A stretch of DNA of 13,875 nt, taken from NCBI GenBank assembly GCA_029856155.1, contig JAHQWL010000100.1, positions 1 to 13,875 on the forward strand, written 5' to 3'. The stretch is from Promethearchaeia archaeon. Its GTDB lineage: Archaea; Asgardarchaeota; Lokiarchaeia; Sigyniarchaeales; SOKP01. Of this stretch, positions 1 to 11,896 are shown piece by piece. Made by a program: the position numbers and the translations under genes. Positions within the stretch are counted from its first letter, which is position 1. Each line of letters starts with the position of its first letter. Below the pieces are notes generated by a model. That model was not told where the DNA came from, did no database searches, and worked only from the letters and a program-made list of their open reading frames with translations.

Positions 1-1152
1 GCTTTAGAATCACTTGAAAAAGCTTTTGAATTAGCTAAAAATGTAAAGGCTCCTTATATTATAATCAGCACGTTAGGGAGCATGATCGAAGTCTTGGTTT
101 TAAAAGGAGAGATTGAATCAGCTAAGGAGTATTTATTGAAACTCAGAGAAATCGAAGAAAAAGAGAAGAACAAACTTGTGGAACTATACACTCAATTTAG
201 CGAAGGACTTATCTTAAAGTCAAGAAATAGAATACAAGATCGTGCAAAAGCACAGAATATTTTCGAAGACATAATTCAAAAAGAATTGATATCTGCAGAA
301 ATAACAATGAAAGCTCTTTTAAATCTATGTGATCTCTTGGTTGAGGAATTTCGCTTAACTACCGAATTAGAAGTATTAGATGAACTTAATCCATTACTCG
401 AGAAATTGTTAGTCATTGCAGAAAATCTCAATTCATTTTGGATTTTAGCTGAAGCTTATTTATTACAAGCAAAATTAGCCTTATTGAAAGGGGATATAAA
501 AAGTGCCAGAAAAAAGTTAACTGAAGCTGAAGGAGTAGCTGAGAAATACGGTCTCAGATTATTAGCGGGTAAAATATCTTATGAACACGATAAATTGTTA
601 AAGAATTTAAAAACATGGGAATCTCTCATAGAAAATGACGTTCCTTTAAAAAGGAGAATCGAATTGGCCGATCTAAATGTACATATTGAAAATATGCTTT
701 TAAATCATAAAGTAGATTTTGAAATTCATAAAGAAGAACCTGTGATAATTTTAATCATTACAGAAGGGGGTACACCCCTCTTTTCACATTCATTTATCAA
801 AGAAAAAACATTTGAAACTCAGGTAATTAGTGGATTTTTAACTACAATAGATTATTTTATAAAAGAAACTTTTTCTCAAGGGTTAGATCGGGCGGTTTTC
901 GGAAATTATACTCTTTTAATGAAACATCTCCAACCATTTTATGTTACATATATATTCAGTGGAGATTCCTATTATGCTCATCAAAGAATAAAGTATTTTA
1001 TTGATTCCATACAACATAAAACACCTATTTGGCAGAATCTGGTGAAATGTAATCAAATTAATAAGTCTATTCGCACAAAAGATATCCCTTTACTGGAATC
1101 CTTAATTACAGAGATATTTGTTAAAAATAAAATTGCAATAAAAGAATTGTAA
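1..1152 (+). CDS. TPR/helical-repeat protein with C-terminal longin-like domain (5'-truncated by window edge)
   Basis: The frame is open from base 1 (ALESLEKAFELAKNVKAPY...), so the real start is upstream of the window. Amphipathic TPR-like helices (AEAYLLQAKLALLKGDIKSARKKL) are followed by a longin-like segment (PVIILIITEGGTPLFSHSF...ISGFLTTIDYFIKETF...FGNYTLLM), an architecture common in Lokiarchaeia. Confidence 0.7.
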   Translation, partial: ALESLEKAFELAKNVKAPYIIISTLGSMIEVLVLKGEIESAKEYLLKLREIEEKEKNKLVELYTQFSEGLILKSRNRIQDRAKAQNIFEDIIQKELISAEITMKALLNLCDLLVEEFRLTTELEVLDELNPLLEKLLVIAENLNSFWILAEAYLLQAKLALLKGDIKSARKKLTEAEGVAEKYGLRLLAGKISYEHDKLLKNLKTWESLIENDVPLKRRIELADLNVHIENMLLNHKVDFEIHKEEPVIILIITEGGTPLFSHSFIKEKTFETQVISGFLTTIDYFIKETFSQGLDRAVFGNYTLLMKHLQPFYVTYIFSGDSYYAHQRIKYFIDSIQHKTPIWQNLVKCNQINKSIRTKDIPLLESLITEIFVKNKIAIKEL

Positions 1153-1270: not shown

Positions 1271-1825
1271 ATGAATAATTCTGAGGAATTCGGATTTAAA
1301 ATAGCGGTAATTGGGGATGGAGGGGTTGGTAAAACCTCTTTAATTAAAAAATTTACGAAGGGGACTTTTGAAAAAGATTATGTAAAGACTATAGGCGCCC
1401 AATTTTCAAGATTTGATAAAAAGATTGGAGAGGATTTAATTAATCTAATATTTTGGGATATTGCAGGGCAAGATGATTTTAATTTTCTACACCCTTTATT
1501 TTATAAAGAAAGTCGAGCTGGGATTATAGTATATAGCCTTGAAGAAAATGATTTAGGGACAGATAGTTTCGCACATATAAAGAATTGGTATACTGAATTA
1601 AATAAGTATTGTGGCGATATTCCTGTAGTTTTATTTGCCAATAAAGTTGATTTGGTGGAACAAAATAATTTAAATGAACTTGAAATTCAGAATTTGGTCA
1701 AAGAATATAATTTTCTTGGATATTATATAACGTCCGCAAAAACCGGACAGGGAGTAATAGAAGGATTTAATGCAATTATTGAAAAATTATATTATAAATA
1801 CAAAAAGTTGTCTATTCAGGGATAA
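1271..1825 (+). CDS. Ras-superfamily small GTPase, Rab-like
   Basis: G1 GDGGVGKT, G2 KTIG, G3 WDIAGQ, G4 NKVD and G5 SAK are all present. There is no C-terminal Cys prenylation motif, as is usual for Asgard small GTPases. Confidence 0.93.
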   Translation: MNNSEEFGFKIAVIGDGGVGKTSLIKKFTKGTFEKDYVKTIGAQFSRFDKKIGEDLINLIFWDIAGQDDFNFLHPLFYKESRAGIIVYSLEENDLGTDSFAHIKNWYTELNKYCGDIPVVLFANKVDLVEQNNLNELEIQNLVKEYNFLGYYITSAKTGQGVIEGFNAIIEKLYYKYKKLSIQG

Positions 1826-1873
1826 TAATTGAATGATCTTCTTTTATTCAATCTATCAGAAATCTCACTTTTA
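1812..1873 (-). repeat. R1: degenerate copy of the lrp 3' end
   Basis: Minus strand reads ...D*IKEDHSIIIPE-TAG versus lrp ...DRIKEDHSIIIPE-TAA. It has a CGA>TGA nonsense change and a 1-nt indel upstream. The 23-bp core at 1825-1847 is identical to 9785-9807. Confidence 0.9.
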
Positions 1874-1952
1874 GTTTAATCAAAATTAGAGAAATAAAGA
1901 TTATTCAATATAATAATAATATTATTTATCTAATACTGAGTATGGTTAAATT

Positions 1953-2432
1953 CTATAGTGTAATCCATATTTTAAGCGGATTTTCAATTTTTGGTCCTAA
2001 AGATTTAAATGATTTATGCTTAAAATGGTCATCACAAGAAAAAATTACATCGACATCAGTATAGAGAGGTAATACACAAATATAATCCCAAATATGAATA
2101 CCACTTTTCATGCTTAATTCTACAGCCTCTTTTACATGCTTATCAAAAATTTGATACCAATGCATAAACTTAGATGATAAGAGTTGGTTACAATACCTAG
2201 AAGCCATAGATATTGGAGCTTTTTTACCCCTAAATGCTAAAGCGTGAAAAATTTCGCAAAGTTGATGATTTGTCATTGAGATTTCACTTTCGATAATGCT
2301 CTGTTTTAAAAATTTGCTTGATTCTTGATGGAGATCAAGAGCATTCTCAAATTCAGATACGTCTTGAAAATTTGAGCGATCAGGTATCTTTTGTGCAAAA
2401 ATCCAGATTTCAGTATCTATAAAGATTGTCAT
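1953..2432 (-). CDS. vapC: PIN-domain toxin (VapC family)
   Basis: N-terminal IFIDTE, LCE, IWDYI and FSCDDHF supply the PIN acidic residues. The start is reassigned to ATG 2432, directly after the antitoxin stop at 2434. Confidence 0.85.
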   Translation of the reverse strand: MTIFIDTEIWIFAQKIPDRSNFQDVSEFENALDLHQESSKFLKQSIIESEISMTNHQLCEIFHALAFRGKKAPISMASRYCNQLLSSKFMHWYQIFDKHVKEAVELSMKSGIHIWDYICVLPLYTDVDVIFSCDDHFKHKSFKSLGPKIENPLKIWITL

Positions 2433-2433
2433 C

Positions 2434-2706
2434 TTAATCACGACTAATATCTTCAAAATTATATTCTTTAAAATCTTCTGGTTGACCGCCTTTAATTTTT
2501 TGTTCTAATAAGGCTAAAAAAGCTTCTCTACCATCATCGATATTGGATGATTCCTCATTACTTTTTTTATTTCTTTCTTCCAAAAGTTTGTTTATTGCAT
2601 CTTCCAATGTAACTCTTTTTCCCAGTTTGGTTGCCATTTCTCCTGCTAATTTATGTAGACTTTCAAGAGTTTTTTTTGATACTTTAATAGTAGTATTTTT
2701 ACTCAT
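2434..2706 (-). CDS. Ribbon-helix-helix-type antitoxin (VapB-like)
   Basis: MSKNTTIKVSKKTLESLHKL...VTLEDAINKLLE fits a beta-helix-helix pattern with an acidic tail. It is 90 aa from ATG 2706 and lies directly upstream of the PIN gene. Confidence 0.75.
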   Translation of the reverse strand: MSKNTTIKVSKKTLESLHKLAGEMATKLGKRVTLEDAINKLLEERNKKSNEESSNIDDGREAFLALLEQKIKGGQPEDFKEYNFEDISRD

Positions 2707-2759
2707 ATAGTATATATAGTATAATATGTATATAAAGTATACCGAATTTTTAAACGGGC

Positions 2760-2785
2760 TAGATGTATAAACTTGGATACATCTA
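2760..2785. promoter_or_regulatory. Perfect inverted repeat TAGATGTAT-N8-ATACATCTA (operator, terminator or recombination site; role unknown)
   Basis: 9-bp arms with an 8-bp spacer, lying between R2 and the antitoxin promoter region. Confidence 0.4.
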
Positions 2786-2798
2786 ATAAACTCATCAT

Positions 2799-2927
2799 GC
2801 ATTCTGGAATAATAATTGAATGATCTTCTTTTATCCGATCTAAAACAATCTCTGTTTTGACTTCCTCAACTCCTGGAAGGTTACGGAGTGTTTCAATAAA
2901 ACCCATCAAATTTTGATTATGTAGACA
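2799..2927 (-). repeat. R2: copy of the last ~42 codons of lrp, stop codon lost
   Basis: Encodes MGFIETLRNLPGVEEVKTEIVLDRIKEDHSIIIPE versus lrp MGLIETLRNLPGVEEVKTEIVLDRIKEDHSIIIPE. Over 35 codons (2802-2906) I count 10 synonymous and 1 non-synonymous difference. The stop position reads TGC. Confidence 0.95.
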
Positions 2928-2971
2928 TGATTCTTCTATTAAAAATATCTAAAAAAACAGAAAAAATACTT

Positions 2972-3026
2972 TTAAAATATATTCTGGAGATGCTATTTTT
3001 TCATAAAGATATAAACACCAGCAATT
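2972..3026 (-). pseudogene. Remnant of the 3' end of a beta-helix surface-protein gene, homologous to 5964-6019
   Basis: ttaaaatatattctggagatgcta-ttttttcataaagatataaacaccagcaatt aligns with ttaaaatttattctggcgttgctcgttttttcataaagatatacacaccagctatt. It translates to IAGVYIFMKK/ASPE versus IAGVYIFMKKRATPE*. Confidence 0.8.
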
Positions 3027-3082
3027 GTATCAACTCAACTAAAATGTTCAAAAAGTGGAGTTTTTTCTTTCTGTTAAATATT

Positions 3083-3505
3083 TTAATCTGAAAACATGCT
3101 TTCAGGAAGTATCCAAACAGGCGGATCTCTTTTAAGCCCTTTTTCTTTAAGTTTTTGTAGCTTATTTCTATAATTATTATAAAAATCGGTTCCAAAGATA
3201 CAAATACCATGATCAATGGCATCTAAAATAGATACGACACCTTCATGAAACATTTTATTAAATTCATCTATTCTATAACAAAACGCATCCAAACCTAAAG
3301 ATAATTTATAATTCTCATAAATAATGGTGGGTCTATGAATAAAAGGTTCTTTAAAGTCTCCAATAAATATTATGTCTAGGTCGCTATTTTCCATAAAATC
3401 ACCTCTTGCTCTCGATCCGAACAGGATTACACATTCTAATGATACTTTTTTATTGATATTTTCCGAAAATTTAATTATATAATCCTTCAAATCAGCCTCT
3501 AGCAT
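3083..3505 (-). CDS. Minimal nucleotidyltransferase (MNT), antitoxin of a HEPN/MNT pair
   Basis: LFGSRARGD...SDLDIIFI is the Pol-beta-type GS...DxD motif. The start is reassigned to ATG 3505, just after the HEPN stop. Confidence 0.9.
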   Translation of the reverse strand: MLEADLKDYIIKFSENINKKVSLECVILFGSRARGDFMENSDLDIIFIGDFKEPFIHRPTIIYENYKLSLGLDAFCYRIDEFNKMFHEGVVSILDAIDHGICIFGTDFYNNYRNKLQKLKEKGLKRDPPVWILPESMFSD

Positions 3506-3509
3506 ATCA

Positions 3510-3908
3510 TCAGTCTCCTTTAATTTCCTTATTAACAAAATTAATTATATCTTTCGCTTGATTTATTGCAATTTCTGCTTCTTGTTTATTATAAGCTTTA
3601 TGTGGAGCAATATTTGGAAGTGCATCGGGATAACGTGTTGTAATATAGTGTTTATCAAGGCTTAGTGCTAATCTTTCAATATTATCAAAATTTTCATTTT
3701 TAATATTCTTATATTTTTCTAAAAGCGAGTGAATAGAATGCCCCCACCCATTAATTTTATTATGATATAACAAGGCTTTCACTGCTTTTTCTGCAGCTTG
3801 CTGACAATGAAAAACTACAGTATTGAATCTATCATTCTCAAACAAAATATTTGCGTTTCCAAGATCCCAGTTTGCTTCCTCTAACCAATTGGTAGTTCGT
3901 TCATTCAT
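3510..3908 (-). CDS. HEPN domain protein
   Basis: WLEEAxxDL, FHCQQAAEKAVKALL, GHSIxxLL and LDKHYITTRYPD are signature motifs of the archaeal HEPN family paired with MNT. Confidence 0.92.
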   Translation of the reverse strand: MNERTTNWLEEANWDLGNANILFENDRFNTVVFHCQQAAEKAVKALLYHNKINGWGHSIHSLLEKYKNIKNENFDNIERLALSLDKHYITTRYPDALPNIAPHKAYNKQEAEIAINQAKDIINFVNKEIKGD

Positions 3909-4226
3909 GAAAGTGATCTATTTTTTTAAAAGTTGCTCTATATTTAATATATCCTTTCAATTTTAAATAACTAGGTAGTAATAGAACTTTTTTCTACCTA
4001 TTTTCATTAATTTTCTTAGATTTGATTCCCATATAATTTGATATAATTTTGAAAATAATAGGATAGTACGATACTTTTCAATAAGACTTATTGAAACTTC
4101 TATTCAATTATTTTTTTAGAAAACATTAAACAGTTTATAAATTATAGTTAAATCTTTTTAGAAAAAATTTATTGATTCACTTAAATACTATTATTTTCTT
4201 TATTATATTGGAAAAGGGGGTGTATT

Positions 4227-5048
4227 ATGTTGAATGAAACCAGATTAAATAAAGTCAATGAGGAAAATTTGGAAAGAATTTGGCAAATTCGTGATTATAT
4301 CCAGGAACTCGAGGATGTAAAGGACGGATTTATTGGATTTATAAGCTCTGATGATGATATAGATGATTCCACGAGGAATATTTGGATATCAGATGCTAAA
4401 GAATTCTATTTTAGCACAGTGACAGCTTGGGAAATGCTCCACTTTACTGTGAGGGGGATGAAGAACCATTTGGATGATTCTAAAGGCTTTTTATATCGTG
4501 CTAAAAGTCGATTAGCCCAGTCTATTAGTGAATTAAAAATATTTGAGCAAGAAAAAAACCTTTCTAAATTAATAACAAAAGCAAAATTAGCATTTGAAAA
4601 ATGTTGGAATGCCTTCCAACGCGAATATAAGTTAATCGAACCAGATATAAGTATAATGAAGCCTGTTCCAAGGGTAATAAAAAAATCTAATCATGAATAT
4701 CAACTTCCATGTTCTATTTGTGGTGAAATAGCTGTCGATTATAGAATAGGTGTTGGACAATTTGATAAAGAAGAAAAACTCCTTTATAGAGGGATTATAT
4801 GTGGTACATCGCTTAATAAGGGATTAGCAAATGAATTGTTTGAGATTTTGGAAAACGAGGATATTGCAGGTATTCATGAATTTATGAAGAACTATCATTC
4901 AAATGAAGGATTAGATGCATACTGCCCAAAGTGTGATAAAATCTATTGTTGGAACCATTACAAATTAGAAGAAGAATGGGATGAGGGTTTTTATGATTGT
5001 ACTTATGGAGAATGCCCAGAAGGATATAGGAGAATGATAGATGATTAG
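4227..5048 (+). CDS. Hypothetical protein with helical N-terminal half and Cys-rich, probably Zn-binding, C-terminal half
   Basis: 273-aa ORF preceded by a G-rich Shine-Dalgarno-like sequence (AGGGGGTG). It contains CSIC, YCPKC...YCWNH and CTYGECP motifs. Confidence 0.7.
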   Translation: MLNETRLNKVNEENLERIWQIRDYIQELEDVKDGFIGFISSDDDIDDSTRNIWISDAKEFYFSTVTAWEMLHFTVRGMKNHLDDSKGFLYRAKSRLAQSISELKIFEQEKNLSKLITKAKLAFEKCWNAFQREYKLIEPDISIMKPVPRVIKKSNHEYQLPCSICGEIAVDYRIGVGQFDKEEKLLYRGIICGTSLNKGLANELFEILENEDIAGIHEFMKNYHSNEGLDAYCPKCDKIYCWNHYKLEEEWDEGFYDCTYGECPEGYRRMIDD

Positions 5049-5094
5049 ATTCATAAATATTGATATTTTTTTTATTTTCTTTAGAAAATGAAGT

Positions 5095-5145
5095 TTATTT
5101 GGGAATTATAGTCGAGTAATTTTCCTTTATACCATTTAAAATCAT
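5095..5145 (-). repeat. R3: strongly degenerate copy of the lrp 3' end
   Basis: Ungapped alignment to 9772-9822 translates MILNGIKENYSTIIPK-TAA versus IVLDRIKEDHSIIIPE-TAA. It has the same orientation and the same stop-codon end point as the other copies. Confidence 0.7.
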
Positions 5146-5151
5146 TAATAA

Positions 5152-5442
5152 CTAAGTCTTAAAGTCTGGAATTCGCGAACCATGAATTAGTCTTATTATC
5201 TGAATTTTTTCTACAAAAATCCTATAAATGAGGCAGTAATTTCTTAAGATTAATTCTCTAATATTAGGATCATCAAGCTCAGGTACTTTTCTTCCCATTT
5301 TCGGAAATTTGACTAAATTTTCAACCTTTTCACGTGCCTCTTCATAAAATGAAAGGGCATATTCAAGTGAGTCTTGAGCAATATAATCAATAATCTCATT
5401 CAAATCGTTTTCTGAGATTTGTGACCATTCTATTTCAACCAT
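5152..5442 (-). CDS. RelE/ParE family toxin
   Basis: IEWS...DLNEIIDYIAQDS, FPKMGRKVPE and IRELILRNYCLIYRI...IIRLIHGSR are the classic ParE-toxin pattern. Confidence 0.9.
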   Translation of the reverse strand: MVEIEWSQISENDLNEIIDYIAQDSLEYALSFYEEAREKVENLVKFPKMGRKVPELDDPNIRELILRNYCLIYRIFVEKIQIIRLIHGSRIPDFKT

Positions 5443-5630
5443 TGTTCTAATCTTTTTTTGACAGTCTCCATAATTTGTTCATGAGGGATTACGTTACATT
5501 GCTCAATATCTTTAATTCCCGTGAGAATCTTTTTTTTAACATAAAGATGATACATAATATCATCAATTGTAGCATCTTCTGGCAATTTTTTTATAAGATC
5601 TATAATTTCTTCCTTGAGATTAGAGGTCAT
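5430..5630 (-). CDS. Antitoxin partner of the RelE/ParE toxin
   Basis: 66-aa gene overlapping the toxin start. KEEIIDLIKKLPEDATIDDIMYHLYV...GIKDIEQxNVIPHE resembles small proteins encoded upstream of ParE toxins. Confidence 0.8.
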   Translation of the reverse strand: MTSNLKEEIIDLIKKLPEDATIDDIMYHLYVKKKILTGIKDIEQCNVIPHEQIMETVKKRLEQWLK

Positions 5631-5730
5631 ATTTTCTCACTATTTAAATAATTTTTCTAACTTTTATAATTTCTCATATCGTTTTGCTTATTATTCTAAT
5701 TAAATTTTAAAATTAAAAAAAATATATCTC

Positions 5731-5754
5731 TGGTATAATTTTCTAATTATACCA
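5731..5754. promoter_or_regulatory. Perfect inverted repeat TGGTATAATT-N4-AATTATACCA (role unknown)
   Basis: 10-bp arms with a 4-bp spacer, lying between R4 and the ParE-type TA start. Confidence 0.4.
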
Positions 5755-5791
5755 AATAACGTTTTAAATTTCTCTAAAAGAAAAAACTTTT

Positions 5792-5893
5792 TTATTCAGG
5801 AATTATAATTGATAAATTTCTTTTTACGCGATCTAATACTATTTCTGTTTTAACCTCCTCTACTCCTGGCATGTTGCAGAGTTTCTCAATAAA
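5792..5893 (-). repeat. R4: diverged copy of the last ~33 codons of lrp
   Basis: Ungapped alignment translates FIEKLCNMPGVEEVKTEIVLDRVKRNLSIIIPE-TAA versus LIETLRNLPGVEEVKTEIVLDRIKEDHSIIIPE-TAA. Confidence 0.93.
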
Positions 5894-5970
5894 GTATGTA
5901 AAATTTACTTGATTAAGACATTCTATTACCATTAAAACATATAAGAAAAAAGAAAAATTCTAGTTAAAAT

Positions 5971-7460
5971 TTATTCTGGCGTTGCTCGTTTTTTCATAAA
6001 GATATACACACCAGCTATTACTGCGACTCCTCCGACTACAGAAACAACAATAATAACTATAATAACGCTTGGATCTATTCCACCAGCAGGGATATTTTTA
6101 GTTATCGTTACTTCTTCAAAAGTGAGATTTCCAGCTGTATCATTAGTATAGAACGTAATCGTTATTGATCCTTCAGATAGAGCTACCCAAGCTGCTTGGT
6201 CAATAGTAGCATTCGTAGTAATAGCATAAGTGGTTAAGCCTCCATCAAGAGAATACCAGACAGAATCTAAATTGTAATCTGTAATCGTAACAATGAAAGC
6301 GGGAGCAGTAGCTCCAAACTCAGCTCCAGGAGATGGTGAATCGATTATGATTAATGGTACTACTGTATCCTTTATTATACTTACATCAGCAGTTCCCATA
6401 TTTCCCGGTATATCAGAAGCATAAAAAGATAATGTAATCATACCATCTGATAAAGCATCCCACGCTGATTGTTCAATGTTTCCAGATAATTCTGTAAATG
6501 TGTAATTATGTAAACCACCGTCAAGAGTATACCATATTTCAAATACAGAATTATCTGTCATTGTAACATCATAGCTTGGTGTATTACTTCCAAATACATC
6601 ATCATCGCTAAGCGAATTAATCGTTATCGATGGGGCACCATCTTCAGCTATAGGGAAATAATCAACACTCCCGGCAGAACCACCTATATACGTATACGGC
6701 TCATCCACAATTCCATCTTGGGGAGTTGTATCTGGACCAGTATGATTATCCCAATAATTCCCAATCGTCGTGCTTTTCCACGTATTATCAGTTCCCCCAT
6801 CATAAGCATGCTTTCCATTTTCTAGAAAGAAATTTTTATAGAGTGAATTGTTTCCACAATCGGTATCCTCAATATATATTCCCCTAGTATTATTGTATAC
6901 GACATTCTCAGTAATACTATTATAATCGCAATTAGATTCTAAATATATCCCGTACTCGTTACCGTTTACAGTATTTCCCGAAATGGTGTTATTATCACAC
7001 TGGTGTAAATATATCCCGTAATGGTTACCATTTGCAGTGTTTCCCGAAATCGTGTTATTATTGCAGTTAAAAATTATATATAACCCCAAAGTGTTATTAT
7101 TTGCGGTGTTTCCCGAAATCGTGTTATAATCACAATTACCATCAAAACATAGCCCTTCAGCATCATTATCGTTTGCAATGTTTCCGAAATGGTGTTATAC
7201 TCACAATAAGAAAATAAATATATCCCAAGATCGTTGTGGTTTGCGGTGTTTCCCAAGATGGTGTTATTATCGCAATTATTATGTATATCTATCCCGGTCA
7301 TATCGTTATCATGTGCGGTGTTGTTGTAGATGGTGTTATTATGACAATTACCATAAAAATTTATCCCGTCTCCGGTATTGTTACATGCGGTTTTTCCCGT
7401 AATGATATTATAATCGCAATCGTTATACAAAAACATTATTATGACAGTTGTGCAGTTGAA
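5971..7460 (-). pseudogene. Membrane-anchored surface protein (NosD/PbH1 right-handed beta-helix, Ig-like domains, C-terminal TM); frameshifted and 5'-truncated
   Basis: Repeats of GIYL..CDNNTISGNTAN.N, then GNYWD...DGIVDEPY, two P.I.I.SP...WYSLDGG Ig-like units and a TM segment followed by KKR. ORFs 7074-7436 and 5971-7089 join if CC at 7184-7185 is restored to the CCC seen in sister repeats. No signal peptide or N-terminus is seen, and the 5' limit is approximate. Confidence 0.85.
6960..7350. repeat. Imperfect intragenic tandem repeats, ~66-72 bp period (beta-helix coils)
   Basis: A recurring motif similar to gtgtttcccgaaat(c/g)gtgttat appears near 6970, 7037, 7106, 7178 and 7246, with a weaker copy near 7317. 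Confidence 0.75.
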
Positions 7461-7525
7461 ATCTAAATCTAAATAGTCTAATATTTCTGAAAAAACATAA
7501 ATAGTCAGAAAAACATATATTTTTT

Positions 7526-7786
7526 ATGACAACTCAAGATAAAACAATTGTTGGAAAAAAAGGAGAAATATTACCCAAAAAACCACTAAGGGAAATATCA
7601 GGGATTAATCCCGGAGATGAGGTAATTATTGAGGCACATCAAGGAGAACTAATTATAAAAAAGATTTTTTCTGTCGAAGAAGCATTAGCCATGCCACCTA
7701 TCAGCTCTGGCACTGCCGAAAGTATAGAAGCTGATATTAAAGAGGAGAGAGAATATCAGGAGAAACTTACTAATGAAGAACATTAA
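7526..7786 (+). CDS. AbrB/MazE/SpoVT-family antitoxin
   Basis: VGKKGEIxxxKxLRExxGINPGDEVII...GELIIKK is the swapped-hairpin signature. The gene overlaps the downstream PIN gene. Confidence 0.88.
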   Translation: MTTQDKTIVGKKGEILPKKPLREISGINPGDEVIIEAHQGELIIKKIFSVEEALAMPPISSGTAESIEADIKEEREYQEKLTNEEH

Positions 7787-8279
7787 ATCAATTATGCTGG
7801 ATACAACATATGTATTACCCCTTTTTGGTATTAAAATAAACCTTTCGGAAAACTTTCGAGAAGAGATAAGTCAACTCTGGAAAAACGGAATAAAAGATTA
7901 TGACATATATCTTCCATCAACATGTCTTATAGAAACTGTTTATAAATTACTTTATGAATATAGAAAAAGGGACGATTTGAGCATCTTAGAAAGATATCAT
8001 CTGATTCTCCCAACAATTCTTAATTCATCAATACAAATATATAATCCAGAATTAGACATAAAAGCTAGTGCAATAGCTTCAATCATTAGGAATTCGGGTC
8101 ATTTGGATTATATGGATTGTTGGATCGCGGGATCTGCAGTTGCTTTAAATTCGATCCTTTTAACCGAAGATAAAGAATTAGAAAAAATCCTTAAGATAAT
8201 CCCAGAAACTAAATCACTAAATGTAAGATCATGGAAAAAATTCATTACAAAAATCTTTAATGAGCATAAATTATCATAA
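7773..8279 (+). CDS. vapC: PIN-domain toxin (VapC family)
   Basis: MLDTTY, CLIET, DYMDCWIAGSA and LLTEDKEL carry the PIN catalytic acidic residues. Confidence 0.87.
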   Translation: MKNIKSIMLDTTYVLPLFGIKINLSENFREEISQLWKNGIKDYDIYLPSTCLIETVYKLLYEYRKRDDLSILERYHLILPTILNSSIQIYNPELDIKASAIASIIRNSGHLDYMDCWIAGSAVALNSILLTEDKELEKILKIIPETKSLNVRSWKKFITKIFNEHKLS

Positions 8280-8298
8280 ACTCCCAATATGAGTAAGA

Positions 8299-8617
8299 AT
8301 GAAAAAAGAGACCATAGATGAGCTTGATCGTATAGTGGAATTACTTGCTATAGATAGAATTACAATTGTAAGAAAAATAATTAGTACCGGAATTAAACAA
8401 CAAAAAATACAAGTAACCCTTGATTTATATCAAAAAGGAGATACATTGGAGCGAGCGACAAATTTATCTGATGCTTCGTTATGGGATCTCTTTGAAGAAT
8501 TTAAAAAATTGAGGTATAACATCTAAATTTGATATTGAAAAAGAGAAAGACACATATATTCGTATTTTTAGGAAAGATAATAAGGATTTATTTAAAAAAA
8601 TAAGAGATATTCAATAA
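8299..8617 (+). pseudogene. UPF0175-like HTH putative antitoxin, probably frameshifted near 8510
   Basis: RHH-like N-terminus plus LDLYQKGDTLERATNLSDASLWDLFEEFKK. A shifted frame continues GITSKFDIEKEK...RDIQ to TAA 8617, restoring the family-typical ...KxGI tail. No downstream toxin follows. Confidence 0.55.
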
Positions 8618-8707
8618 ATTTCTTCTATCCATTTGATTTAGTATCAAATTTAATGTGGAGAATAATCCTAAATAAAAAAAGGCTGTATGAAAAGATCTGA
8701 AATTTTA

Positions 8708-8808
8708 TCACTCAGGGATAATAATTGAATGATCTTCTTTTATTCGGTCCAAAACTATTTCAGTCTTAACTTCTTCAACTCTAGAAAAATCTTCTCAATC
8801 TTGTTTTT
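8708..8808 (-). repeat. R5: copy of the lrp 3' end plus a second, more upstream lrp segment
   Basis: 8708-8779 encodes VEEVKTEIVLDRIKEDHSIIIPE-TGA, identical in protein to lrp with 8 synonymous differences in 23 codons. 8789-8808 matches lrp 9962-9981 at 19 of 20 positions. Confidence 0.93.
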
Positions 8809-8929
8809 AATATTCTTTTCCCACCTCATATAAAGAACAGTCGAAATCTATTGAAAAATATTGATGATTCTCTCCTATTTTAAAGTAAAAATTATATAAT
8901 TTAGATATTATATATATTGTAGAGATAAT

Positions 8930-9172
8930 ATGACAGAAATAAAACTTAAAATTCCTGAAGCTTTACACGAAAAAATGAAAAAACACCCAGAGATTAGATG
9001 GGAAACCATTGCCCAATCAGCTTTAGAACGTTATGTCGAAAAAATTGAATTCACTGAAAAGATTGCATCAACTAGCAAATTAACTATTGATGACGTTGAG
9101 GATATAAGTAATGAAATTACTAAAAGAAGTTGGCAAAAACATAAAGAATATCTTGAAAAATTAAAAAAATGA
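8930..9172 (+). CDS. Ribbon-helix-helix antitoxin (archaeal VapB-like)
   Basis: IKLKIPEALHEKMKKHPEIRWETIAQSALERY fits the archaeal RHH 'EIxWS' type. It has an ATGA overlap with the PIN gene. Confidence 0.8.
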   Translation: MTEIKLKIPEALHEKMKKHPEIRWETIAQSALERYVEKIEFTEKIASTSKLTIDDVEDISNEITKRSWQKHKEYLEKLKK

Positions 9173-9630
9173 AGCTTATCATTGATACTAATGTATTAAT
9201 CTCTAGCTTATTGAAAGATTCAACTACTAGACAGCTACTTCTTAATGAGTCATTTGAATTTTATCTACCTGAAATCGTTATAATTGAGCTAAAGAAATAT
9301 CTTATATACATAATTCAAAAATCAGGAATAACTGAAGATGAGATAAAAAATCTTCTAAATGCGCTGCTTGAAAATTTAAAATTAGTGCCTTTTGATGAAT
9401 ATGAAGATCAAATGGATGAGGCAATGGAGATCATGGGTAAAATAGATGAAAAGGATACACAGTTTATAGCTTTAGCATTATCAATTAAAAATGATGGAAT
9501 ATGGTCTAATGATAAACATTTTGATGAGCAAACAAAAATCCAAGTCTATAAAACCATTGATATCATTAATCTCTTGGAGAAAAAGTCGAAAAGTCAGGAT
9601 GATGAAAAGCAAGATAATAAAAAGTTATGA
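9169..9630 (+). CDS. vapC: PIN-domain toxin (VapC family)
   Basis: LIIDTNVLISSLL, VIIEL, DEKDTQFIALAL and IWSNDKHF motifs. Confidence 0.92.
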   Translation: MKLIIDTNVLISSLLKDSTTRQLLLNESFEFYLPEIVIIELKKYLIYIIQKSGITEDEIKNLLNALLENLKLVPFDEYEDQMDEAMEIMGKIDEKDTQFIALALSIKNDGIWSNDKHFDEQTKIQVYKTIDIINLLEKKSKSQDDEKQDNKKL

Positions 9631-9771
9631 TTCTAAAAAATTTCTCTTAATTTAATACTAAAATAATTTATATGGTTTTTAGTTAAGTAAAATGCTTTTT
9701 GTCTTAATTTATGTTAAGTAGAATATTATTCAATCGTTTTTTCTTTTTTAGAAGAACAATAATCTGGAAAA

Positions 9772-10239
9772 TTACTCAGGAATTATAATTGAATGATCTT
9801 CTTTTATTCGGTCTAAGACAATCTCAGTTTTAACTTCCTCAACTCCGGGAAGGTTGCGGAGTGTTTCAATAAGACCCATAGAATCTTGATGGTTTAAACA
9901 TTTTGCCATAATAAATAAAGGATATTCTCCAGTAACTACATAAGCATATTTTATCTTTTCCATCTTCTCAATCTCGTTTTTGACACCCTCTAATGGATTT
10001 GTAGCATTTAATCTTAGAGATGCCATTACCATTTCTCGATATCCTAATAGGCGACAATCAATTAATGCAACATACTTTTTAATCAAATCTTTCTCAAGTC
10101 GTTGAATACGCGCTCTTATAGCAGTAGCACTCTTATTTGTTTGGTGCGCAATTTCTCTAATAGTTAATTTTGCATCATCTTGTAATAACTCAAGAATTTG
10201 TCGATCTATATCATCAAGAGTTCCATTTGTTGATACCAT
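9772..10239 (-). CDS. lrp: Lrp/AsnC family transcriptional regulator (target gene of the cassette array)
   Basis: LDDIDRQILELLQDDAKLTIREIA...RARIQRLE HTH and a C-terminal RAM domain (VTGEYP...LPGVEEVKTEIVL). Confidence 0.95.
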   Translation of the reverse strand: MVSTNGTLDDIDRQILELLQDDAKLTIREIAHQTNKSATAIRARIQRLEKDLIKKYVALIDCRLLGYREMVMASLRLNATNPLEGVKNEIEKMEKIKYAYVVTGEYPLFIMAKCLNHQDSMGLIETLRNLPGVEEVKTEIVLDRIKEDHSIIIPE

Positions 10240-10541
10240 AAAATCAATCCCGTTGGTAATTTTTCAAGGTCTATTATAACTGTTTATAATTTATTAGTTT
10301 CTTACTTTCATTAAAAAGTAATATGTTCTATTTTTAATATAGTAGTTTTGATTTATAATTTTTTTTACTACAAACTTATGATCATATAGTTTTATTTGTT
10401 AATAAATGATATGATTATAGAAAAAAAAACTATTATTTAAATAGTATATTATATTTTTGATCTATAATGAATATGATTCATAATCTAAAATGATATAATA
10501 ACAAAAAAAAATAAATAAAAAAACTAAAAAAAGTGAAAAAA
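10240..10541. promoter_or_regulatory. AT-rich divergent promoter region between lrp and tusA, with a candidate operator ATGAAT-N3-ATTCAT at 10467-10481
   Basis: About 300 bp of very AT-rich DNA between divergent starts, with TATA-like tracts and a 15-bp semi-palindrome. Lrp binding is inference only. Confidence 0.45.
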
Positions 10542-10766
10542 ATGGCTGTTAAAACATATAATTATACTGGCTTAAAATGCCCGATGCCAGTTTTGAAAAC
10601 AAAAAAGGAATTAAGAAATTTGGCTTCTGGAGAGGTTATAGAAGTAATCGCAGATGATGTAGGGGCTAAAAAAGACATTCCAGCGCTTCTCAATAAAAGT
10701 GGTGACGAATTAGTAGAACTTAGAGAAGATAATGGAAATTTAATTTTTGTCATTAAGAAAGCTTAA
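10542..10766 (+). CDS. tusA: Sulfur carrier TusA/SirA family
   Basis: GLKCPMPVLKTKKEL (CPxP motif) and GEVIEVIADD...DIP. The ATG at 10542 is preferred over the GTG at 10533. Confidence 0.93.
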   Translation: MAVKTYNYTGLKCPMPVLKTKKELRNLASGEVIEVIADDVGAKKDIPALLNKSGDELVELREDNGNLIFVIKKA

Positions 10767-10795
10767 AACGCATTATACGGAGCAAAGATATTAAA

Positions 10796-11164
10796 ATGTC
10801 TAAATATGTTTTCTTTATTAGCACGGAACCTTACAAATATCAGGCTGTAGATTCTCTTATAGAAATAGGTAAAGCTGCAATAAGAAAGGGGCACGAGATA
10901 GCGTGTATATTCTTCTTTGGGACTGGTGTTTATAATCTTAAAAAGGAGATTAGCTGTGGAACGACCATAAGAAATATCCCAGAGAAAATTGAGAAATTTT
11001 CCAATGAGAACAAAATTCCAGTATCAGGATGTAGTACATGGGTTAGTATAACAGGGCTTAAAGAACCAGAATTCATTGAAGGTGCATCTGAAGAAGGTTT
11101 AGGGGATTTTTCTAACTGGGTAATTGATGCAGATAAATTAATTGTATTTGGAGCTGGAGGTTAA
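10796..11164 (+). CDS. dsrE: DsrE/TusD-family sulfurtransferase subunit
   Basis: EPY...AAIRKGHEI..IFFFGTGV, a putative active-site Cys in GCSTW, and GLGDFS...ADKLIVF. Confidence 0.8.
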   Translation: MSKYVFFISTEPYKYQAVDSLIEIGKAAIRKGHEIACIFFFGTGVYNLKKEISCGTTIRNIPEKIEKFSNENKIPVSGCSTWVSITGLKEPEFIEGASEEGLGDFSNWVIDADKLIVFGAGG

Positions 11165-11169
11165 GAATT

Positions 11170-11538
11170 ATGGTAGAATCTGTGGTAATAATAAGCGATC
11201 AATCACCAATTGGCAGAAATTCGGCAGTTGAGGCCATTAGAATTGGTTCAGGATTTACTGCTCTTGGAGAATTTATTGACTGCAAAATTGTATTCATGGG
11301 TGATGCTGTGTATTTATTCAATAAGAATTGCAACCCTGAAGCTGTAGGAATGGATCCTCTGGCAGAAGTATTGGAAATGGCTGATTTATCTGATTTAGAA
11401 GTATATATTATTGAATCTGCTTTAACTGATGCGGGATTTACTAAAGCTGACATGATTGACTATGAAAATTTGAAAATCATTGGATATGATGAATTAACAG
11501 ATTTAATTGCTAATGCAGATACGTGTTTTAGATATTAA
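11170..11538 (+). CDS. dsrF: DsrF/TusC-family subunit
   Basis: SPIG...EAIR, VFMGDAVY and a C-terminal LIANAD..F motif. It lies between dsrE-like and dsrH-like genes. Confidence 0.75.
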   Translation: MVESVVIISDQSPIGRNSAVEAIRIGSGFTALGEFIDCKIVFMGDAVYLFNKNCNPEAVGMDPLAEVLEMADLSDLEVYIIESALTDAGFTKADMIDYENLKIIGYDELTDLIANADTCFRY

Positions 11539-11554
11539 GAGGGGATAAAAAAAG

Positions 11555-11896
11555 ATGTCAGAAAATCTTGATATGATATATTTGTTTGGATTTAGTGGAT
11601 TAACGGGGACTCAATTACAGAGGTTATTACCTATTTTGAAAAGTCAAATTAAAAAAAATACCAAGCTTGGATTAGTTTTAATTCACGATGGCGTAATAGG
11701 CATAACAACAAAGGGAAAGATACAAAAAGAAATGGAAGAACTCCTCAGTTTAGATGTAGTTCTATTTGCTATGAGATCAGACATGAAAGCTCGAGGTATA
11801 GCTCTAAAATACATACATGACAAAATTAAATCTATAGAATATGATGATCTAATAGATGTTATTGATGCTACGCCAAAAGTAATATCTTGGATGTAG
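11555..11896 (+). CDS. dsrH: DsrH/TusB-family subunit
   Basis: LVLIHDGV, DMKARGI and IEYDDLID...VISW are DsrH signatures. Confidence 0.85.
   Translation: MSENLDMIYLFGFSGLTGTQLQRLLPILKSQIKKNTKLGLVLIHDGVIGITTKGKIQKEMEELLSLDVVLFAMRSDMKARGIALKYIHDKIKSIEYDDLIDVIDATPKVISWM

Follow-up and report, generated by a model that had tools for sequence, protein, structure and literature searches.

Truncated lrp gene ends punctuate a cassette array in a Lokiarchaeial genome: probable accretion by homologous recombination

Asgard genomes are large and mosaic, and little is known of how these archaea acquire genes; to our knowledge, the integrated elements described in them use an integrase and sit mostly at tRNA sites. 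Here we describe a locus in a member of the Lokiarchaeia at which unrelated gene cassettes lie in a row behind lrp, the gene of an Lrp/AsnC-family regulator, and are separated by truncated copies ("tails") of the 3′ end of that gene. The DNA analyzed, hereafter the window, is the complete 13,875-bp contig C100 of assembly G000 (4.1 Mb in 104 contigs, 30% G+C; the handles G, C, and L denote genomes, contigs, and loci). On the 5′ side of lrp, and divergent from it, lie tusA and dsrE-family genes. The placement of lrp beside tusA-dsrEFH was kept in every member of the genus examined, and the content behind lrp varied. At the other end of the window, genes for a small Ras-family GTPase and a TPR protein make up the conserved distal flank (Table 1).

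A preliminary description of the window, drawn from the sequence alone, had listed five co-oriented lrp tails behind the intact gene, each by the position of its stop codon. A tblastn search of the window with the 155-residue Lrp protein recovered these five extra copies of the C terminus (R5, nearest lrp, to R1), all on the minus strand like lrp itself. In every copy the homology stops at the stop-codon position, as had been described, and the sequence beyond is unrelated. R3 is weak when taken alone and is syntenic with a clear 17-residue tail that follows ParE in G001 (L016:2407), and R1 overlaps the 3′ end of the convergent GTPase gene. When a 48-residue tail was searched by tblastn against the whole assembly, no copies were found outside contig C100, and the scatter over the genome that would have spoken against an array was not seen. 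Three further features of R2 were observed: its stop codon has mutated to TGC, which leaves the tail frame open to position 2703; the ATG of the open reading frame (ORF) at 2434-2802 overlaps its last codon; and ~100 nt have apparently been lost at its junction relative to G018.

The tails bound five cassettes of 0.65 to 2.9 kb that are unrelated to one another, again in agreement with the preliminary description. Four of them encode type II toxin-antitoxin pairs, with the PIN_2, PIN and MazE/AbrB, ParE, and HEPN and MNT matches all exceeding the Pfam cut-offs, and the overlapping gene pair of cassette 1 (1953-2802) is possibly another. The Pfam scan of the cassettes in the window gave no integrase or transposase family, and look-ups of the family-less cassette proteins in NCBIfam and Atlas gave no recombinase lead. 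The Atlas cluster of one cassette protein is commonest in Promethearchaeota. In the NosD-like gene of cassette 4, the frameshift yields ORFs of 372 and 120 residues, and internal repeats of ~69 nt are present.

Table 1. Features of the window, ordered from the distal flank to the intact lrp gene
Feature	Coordinates	Strand	Details
TPR protein	1-1152	+	Pfam TPR_MalT; conserved distal flank
Small Ras-family GTPase	1271-1825	+	Pfam Ras, 2e-39; conserved distal flank
R1, lrp end	1812-1877 (match 1815-1871/1877)	-	19-21 residues, one internal stop, TAG; E 9e-4
Cassette 1, overlapping gene pair	1878-2801		ORFs 2434-2802(-) and 1953-2456(-); no Pfam/NCBIfam family
R2, truncated lrp tail	2802-2939	-	42 residues (2802-2927), 88%, E 4e-21; 46 residues to 2939
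Cassette 2	2940-5094		DUF8328 gene, HEPN-MNT pair, NosD remnant
NosD gene 3′-end remnant (cassette 2)	~2947-3026		Repeat D15
HEPN gene with MNT nucleotidyltransferase gene (cassette 2)	3510-3908; 3083-3538	-; -	HEPN, 3e-32; NTP_transf_2/Polbeta
DUF8328 gene (cassette 2)	4227-5048	+	Atlas DUF8328, score 0.97
R3, short decayed lrp tail	5095-5148 (match ~5098-5148)	-	~16 residues, TAA; E 0.09-0.2
Cassette 3, ParDE-type pair	5149-5791		Antitoxin 5430-5630(-); ParE/RelE toxin 5152-5442(-), ParE_toxin, 6.5e-18
R4, truncated lrp tail	5792-5938 (match 5795-5938)	-	48 residues, TAA; 58%, E 3e-14
Cassette 4	5939-8707		Small ORF 8299-8526(+), antitoxin and PIN pair, NosD-like gene
NosD-like beta-helix/Ig surface-protein gene, frameshifted (cassette 4)	5971-7436	-	Pfam NosD, 5e-21; Big_13
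AbrB/MazE antitoxin and PIN toxin (cassette 4)	7526-7786; 7773-8279	+; +	Pfam MazE, 3e-4; PIN, 2e-9
R5, truncated lrp tail	8708-8791 (match 8711-8791)	-	27 residues, TGA; 85%, E 1e-9
Cassette 5 (nearest lrp), VapBC-type pair	8792-9771		Antitoxin 8930-9172(+), weak VapB match; PIN_2 toxin 9169-9630(+), 1e-25
Intact lrp (Lrp/AsnC-family regulator, 155 residues)	9772-10239	-	Pfam HTH_AsnC-type, 2e-14; AsnC_trans_reg, 3e-9

Comparison with relatives revealed true empty sites. In G048 the Ras-GTPase/TPR pair lies ~160 nt behind lrp, and in metagenome contig L061 the last codons of an intact lrp overlap the end of the GTPase gene, in a junction that is homologous base for base to the junction of R1 and the GTPase gene in the window. 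The terminal tail of a 19-kb array in G061 joins the GTPase gene just as R1 does. Since the empty sites carry the same GTPase/TPR flank, R1 is the ancestral end of lrp, and all that lies between R1 and the present stop codon was inserted. The G061 array (L033:10469-17277 and L034:2766-4503) also contains two GTPase genes and four TPR genes, that is, the flank pair is duplicated inside it.

A tail of lrp was found in 41 of the 54 genomes of the genus, with at least two copies in 21. From the fetched loci and 20 metagenome contigs, we catalogued 109 tail ends; once duplicates were taken out, 42 were long (full-length-like) and 62 were truncated tails of 17 to 93 residues. Longer displaced lrp copies of ~105 to 135 residues were present as well, and successive tails are spaced 159 to 7,285 bp apart. 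The content of the arrays turns over between relatives. One and the same cassette start lies behind intact lrp in some genomes and behind a truncated tail in others, and the HEPN-MNT pair and the DUF8328 gene occur in G053 in the order opposite to that in the window. The ParDE cassette is accompanied by a distal tail of ~17 residues in both the window and G001, and the cassette 1 pair keeps a distal tail of 19 to 30 residues in the window, G018, and G041 (where the pair is ~60% identical). In G016, the resident lrp is of one allele type and two of the four tails are of the other, and we therefore take these tails to have been brought in from other lineages.

The cargo of the relatives includes four more PIN toxins, members of the DUF433/DUF5615, VapB, MazE, and UPF0175 families, and helix-turn-helix regulators. 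NosD-like surface proteins are the commonest cargo in the genus (15 ORFs at 11 loci); their genes are diverged paralogues, each followed by an lrp tail. One relative carries a cassette with a glucodextranase and a sugar transporter. The earlier view of small, non-autonomous cassettes needs the caveat that large surface proteins and metabolic genes are also among the cargo of the relatives. In four genomes, an lrp or tail frame lacks its usual stop and runs into the cassette (L019:12801 in G024, L036:2252 in G042, L038:6673 in G059, and L051:12538 in G053), and the resulting read-through frames would encode Lrp with differing short C-terminal extensions. A separate observation concerns tusA, dsrE, and dsrH (10533-11896 in the window) and their orthologues, which fall into two classes with ~75% and ~90% identity to the window; these classes did not track with the lrp allele type across genomes, a sign that lineages frequently recombine in the conserved tusA-dsr flank as well.

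We then asked what the tails are. Conservation at codon positions 1, 2, and 3 was 0.87, 0.93, and 0.69 in the truncated tails and 0.94, 0.975, and 0.69 in the intact genes. No nucleotide-level core beyond this coding constraint was detected, as third positions within the final 30 nt vary no less than those elsewhere. Beyond the stop codon, column conservation was below 0.7, and no dyad was evident of the dif-like kind (11-6-11) that IMEX, elements exploiting the host Xer and dif, would have at each junction (the genome's own dif site formed no part of this comparison). Folding of the tail DNA on both strands gave z values of -2.2 to +1.3, with no attC-like or shared hairpin, in line with the earlier report that no integrase, transposase, or attC-type site was recognizable. 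The codon-periodic conservation and the lack of an additional nucleotide core argue that the tails are former working gene ends and no specialized sites. The length of the repeat varies from 17 to ~135 codons; its 3′ edge is constant.

Direct evidence on how the tails came to be displaced was obtained from G018. Compared with the window, this genome carries one extra cassette, then a 131-codon lrp copy, and then the VapBC cassette (95% identical to cassette 5). We took the sites that differ between the intact lrp and the displaced copy of G018, with the window as a close-relative reference. At sites -390 to -286 the window agreed with the intact lrp of G018 in 8 of 8 cases, and at sites -280 to -100 it agreed with the displaced copy in 12 of 13. 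In its 5′ part, the displaced copy has variants in common with the copy found behind the same cassette in G005. A single crossover within 393 nt of incoming homology, ~283 nt from its end, would leave just such a reciprocal mosaic, and this is the one clear case. Crossovers inside the homology, at variable places, favor homologous recombination. Replacement of the old tail by an incoming one, already claimed in the preliminary description, gains support from this mosaic and from the codon-periodic conservation of the tails. In G041, 180 nt of a 78-residue tail show no difference from the intact lrp, which marks a very recent event. We also observed that the 3′ third of closely related lrp alleles is somewhat more diverged than the rest in 28 of 38 pairs, binned by total distance. 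A first version of this test was biased, the pairs having been chosen on their 5′ distance, and the modest effect left after re-binning lends weak support to tail replacement.

Based on these data, we propose that the array probably grew without a recombinase of its own, by homology-driven accretion of cassettes through single homologous (Campbell-type) crossovers behind lrp. The starting point would be an lrp gene that overlapped the GTPase gene end with its stop codon, as preserved in R1. DNA molecules carrying a piece of the lrp 3′ end (17 to ~135 codons) and cargo would recombine repeatedly with the chromosomal lrp, each event being a single "pop-in" crossover in the shared lrp sequence. 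The product would be, in order, an intact hybrid lrp, the cargo, and a 5′-truncated lrp tail, with older material displaced from lrp. We infer that recombination between tails would release one or several cassettes as a circle with one tail, that such a circle may re-enter lrp in another cell, and that toxin-antitoxin pairs would accumulate because their loss is penalized. The tails would thus be portable homology, which would make a dedicated recombinase unnecessary.

Campbell-type integration of a circle that carries a 3′-terminal gene fragment (pop-in/pop-out, or insertion-duplication) is textbook knowledge and routine in archaea. The array shares with it the intact upstream copy, the 5′-truncated downstream copy, the direct repeats, the reciprocal mosaic of G018, the lack of need for a recombinase, and reversibility through recombination between repeats. 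In the window, too, the proximal lrp is complete and the distal copies are truncated at their 5′ side only and lie in the same orientation. Unlike the textbook case, the process here appears to be natural and repeated, with arrays of up to at least six tails across the genus; the tail lends portable homology to a wide range of unrelated cargos; and no circular intermediate was seen in the assembled contigs.

The order of the cassettes cannot be read as a strict clock with the newest next to lrp. We rejected this reading on finding that the decay of the tails is non-monotonic with distance (R2 is better kept than R3 and R4); together with the tails found inside some blocks, this indicates that growth did not proceed strictly cassette by cassette. 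We also considered as circle junctions two joints in contigs of run X4 that "go back" in the window (5047 to 3076 and 5082 to 2952). They match the order in G053, with HEPN-MNT before DUF8328, and were not counted. These joints lie in low-depth contigs and connect the end of the DUF8328 gene to the end of the MNT gene with 33 to 35 other bases between; a circular or tandem form of cassette 2 may lie behind them.

Several observations weigh against single homologous crossovers as the whole account. The mosaic comprises ~30 informative sites in one genome pair, and the patterns in G005 and G008 are more complex. No mosaic is seen in G016, where the intact lrp is of one allele type and the adjacent tail of the other, each to its last codon, and a crossover there must therefore have lain at the extreme end. 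In 109 of 109 catalogued tails, with many different cassette starts, the homology ends at the stop codon or a few bases from it. Random circles would not be expected to leave so sharp a 3′ edge; it is what one would predict if the event were site specific or if selection strongly favored minimal fragments that restore the gene. Homologous recombination works poorly on tails as short as 17 to 25 codons that are only ~80% identical. The 3′ polarity (few 5′ "heads") is accounted for only by invoking selection, and the origin of the first tail-bearing cassette is left without an account. Finally, no circle or excision product was seen in the assembled Logan contigs.

The sharp 3′ edge also speaks for site-specific tandem accretion in trans. 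In this reading, the tails would be att sites, and non-autonomous cassettes, comparable to cis-mobilizable elements or integron cassettes, would enter at the lrp stop through a recombinase whose gene lies elsewhere, whether a viral or plasmid integrase present only transiently, the host XerA, or some unrecognized enzyme. We regard this as unlikely. It would account for the whole tails of the other allele type beside a wholly resident-type lrp in G016, for the persistence of tails of only 17 to 25 residues, and for distal tails that travel with their cassettes, and an enzyme is at hand in the form of one conserved XerA-like gene in every genome. This gene lies away from the arrays, and in G000 the sole copy is on contig C81. 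The preliminary description had proposed a search for a tyrosine recombinase that co-occurs with the arrays, and none was found: searches of the 54 genomes with PF00589, PF16795 (archaeal SSV-type), and PF00239 (Resolvase) gave no match on any tail-bearing contig. A scan of ~70 cassette ORFs found no integrase, the 20 short contigs from the metagenome scan held no recombinase beside a tail, and exact-pattern and protein-guided scans of IMG/VR found no viral contig with an lrp tail. A novel recombinase family may still act on the array. The tails themselves do not resemble att sites, given the missing core, the unconserved right flank, and the absence of a hairpin described above, and a variable repeat length with a G018 crossover far inside the homology is not what an att site would give.

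Known site-specific systems differ in the same respects. Tandem accretion at gene 3′ ends is exemplified by ICESt1/ICESt3 and cis-mobilizable elements (CIMEs) at fda in Streptococcus thermophilus and by the ssrA islands of Dehalococcoides (PMC3146451). As at lrp, tandem non-autonomous units are bounded by repeats of the target 3′ end and the target gene stays intact; those arrays have a cognate tyrosine or serine recombinase and an att core of fixed length, neither of which was found at the lrp array. With chromosomal integrons (IntI, attI, and attC), including archaeal ones (PMC9668308), the array shares ordered, small, mostly promoter-poor cassettes that are rich in toxin-antitoxin genes, a distal repeat, and insertion beside a fixed platform. 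It has no IntI and no attC hairpin, its repeat is a coding gene end, and its crossover site is not fixed but lies at variable places inside the homology, and the label "integron-like" given to it earlier can stand only as an analogy.

A further argument against a single site-specific enzyme comes from other genes of the same genome. When G000 was scanned for truncated C-terminal gene copies, 18 were located downstream on the same strand, a single one upstream, and 2 on the other strand. Three of the 18 belong to lrp; the remaining 15 fall at 12 sites and derive from 14 other query genes, among them a pair of tandem paralogues in C3. Truncated N-terminal "heads" upstream of genes were nearly absent from G000. 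At the 12 other sites, 74 to 268 nt of a gene end are duplicated, and the duplication stops between -10 and +28 nt from the stop codon, with one at +93. The inserts at these sites are ordinary cargo, with no integrase. The 14 targeted gene ends have no common motif beyond chance, and one site-specific enzyme is therefore insufficient to explain the whole set, which has the same footprint as lrp. Put forward as an accretion platform in the preliminary description, lrp is thus not unique in this role.

Single truncated C-terminal copies of 24 to 40 codons lie 0.2 to 3.2 kb downstream of their genes, on the same strand, in contigs C102, C103, C21, C26, C28, C3, C51, C55, C5, C71, C72, and C88. 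The case in C21 involves two convergent genes. The inserts encode a histidine kinase, TetR and SDR proteins, hydrolases, a 3-hydroxyacyl-CoA dehydrogenase, an ABC transporter, and URO-D, and the copy in C5 is 97.5% identical at the protein level, which suggests a recent event. G000 also contains a second tail array, at C89:11287-14711 (locus L072:5287-8712), behind an MFS transporter gene (C89:14572-15885, minus strand). It has three to four copies of the last ~12 codons of the MFS gene with ~35 nt of A-rich 3′ flank, at a spacing of ~1.6 kb, and these separate the gene of a 405-residue orphan protein and that of a zinc-ribbon protein.

Homology might also guide insertion without a circle. In homology-facilitated illegitimate recombination, linear DNA of another lineage would anchor in lrp, and its far end would join illegitimately within the 3′ part of the recipient lrp, so that the old tail stays downstream. 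Such a mechanism has been proposed to explain the orphan immunity genes and 3′ remnants arrayed at type VI secretion system (T6SS) and rhs loci (PMC5361080). The variable tail lengths, the lrp and dsrE alleles that are mosaic between species, and the relative over-divergence of the 3′ third in related lrp alleles would all agree with it. The G018 case fits it poorly, in that the displaced copy has a foreign and not a resident 5′ part, with variants shared with G005, as would be expected of a circle with its own lrp fragment. Moreover, distal tails are of similar length across genomes at ~60% protein identity, and independent joints would differ. We hold this mechanism to be quite improbable.

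The rhs and T6SS loci are nonetheless close structural parallels. C-terminal displacement arrays at rhs loci are treated in PMC5361080, with Jackson et al. 2009 (PMC2935791) cited there as a source, and the same article covers the sequential displacement of T6SS effector-immunity modules in Vibrio cholerae. In common with the lrp array, they have a conserved gene followed by displaced 3′ ends with their own cargo, the newest nearest the gene, no integrase, and an invoked homology-anchored recombination. Those arrays have a variety of toxin domains as tips and the matching immunity genes as cargo, whereas at lrp all tips are the same Lrp C terminus, the cargo is functionally unlinked to lrp, and the host is an Asgard archaeon.

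Very unlikely, in our judgment, is a graveyard of once-autonomous viruses or plasmids that had their own integrase and an attP made of the lrp end, and of which deletion left toxin-antitoxin genes and att scars. Archaeal elements are documented to integrate at gene 3′ ends and restore the gene, to integrate in tandem, and to lose their integrase genes afterward (PMC8371274), and toxin-antitoxin pairs are plausible survivors. Against this, no integrase, capsid, or replication gene adjoins a tail at ~45 loci from 40 genomes and 20 metagenome contigs, the viral contigs of IMG/VR gave no tail, and the recent events in G041 and G018 involve 1- to 5-kb cassettes without such genes. An assembly chimera, with strain variants collapsed at the repeated tail, might be suspected of a window that is an entire 13.9-kb contig of a metagenome-assembled genome and whose related contigs frequently end at lrp (C15 and C73 of G018), but its probability is negligible: the tails are 11 to 40% apart within the window, too diverged for mis-joining, syntenic blocks extend across two tails in G018 and G001, and Logan contigs from runs of three other studies span R2 (X1, X3, X4, and X5), R3 (X3 and X4), R4 (X5), and R5 (X4 and X5) with both flanks. 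These independent contigs establish the junctions R2 to R5, for which the preliminary description had foreseen a long-read check, and one of the metagenomes also carries the variant arrangement seen in G018. All three outcomes that the preliminary description had named as refuting it (a chimeric assembly, relatives with identical content and no empty sites, and tails scattered over the genome) were contradicted by the data, and its interpretation is supported.

Taken together, the comparisons suggest that the array works like a natural pop-in integration and resembles the C-terminal displacement arrays, and it lacks what defines integrons and integrase-driven accretion; its origin is most likely homologous. 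As the preliminary description had supposed, no account of an lrp-anchored array in Asgard archaea was found in our literature search. A bolder and rather doubtful extension is that the tail-bearing cassettes of Lokiarchaeia make up a class of mobile DNA of their own that needs no recombinase, namely, small circles with a host gene 3′-end fragment as their sole "mobility gene," which circulate between species and for which lrp is a preferred platform. If this were true, the array would be a homology-guided counterpart of the integron that concentrates toxin-antitoxin, defense, and surface-protein genes, and a measurable share of the gene gain in this genome would have come by the same route (13 gene sites including lrp, with a polarity of 18:1). 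In a stronger form of this extension, an unrecognized host activity would target the edge next to the stop codon, and the sharp 3′ boundary would be explained.

The locus represents a simple and apparently common alternative to integrase-driven gene gain, in which genes are added behind a conserved gene by means of a carried copy of its end. This would explain the pile-up of toxin-antitoxin pairs and variable surface proteins at one address. It also means that a truncated gene tail downstream of its gene, on the same strand, may serve as a cheap footprint of recent gene gain in metagenome-assembled genomes.

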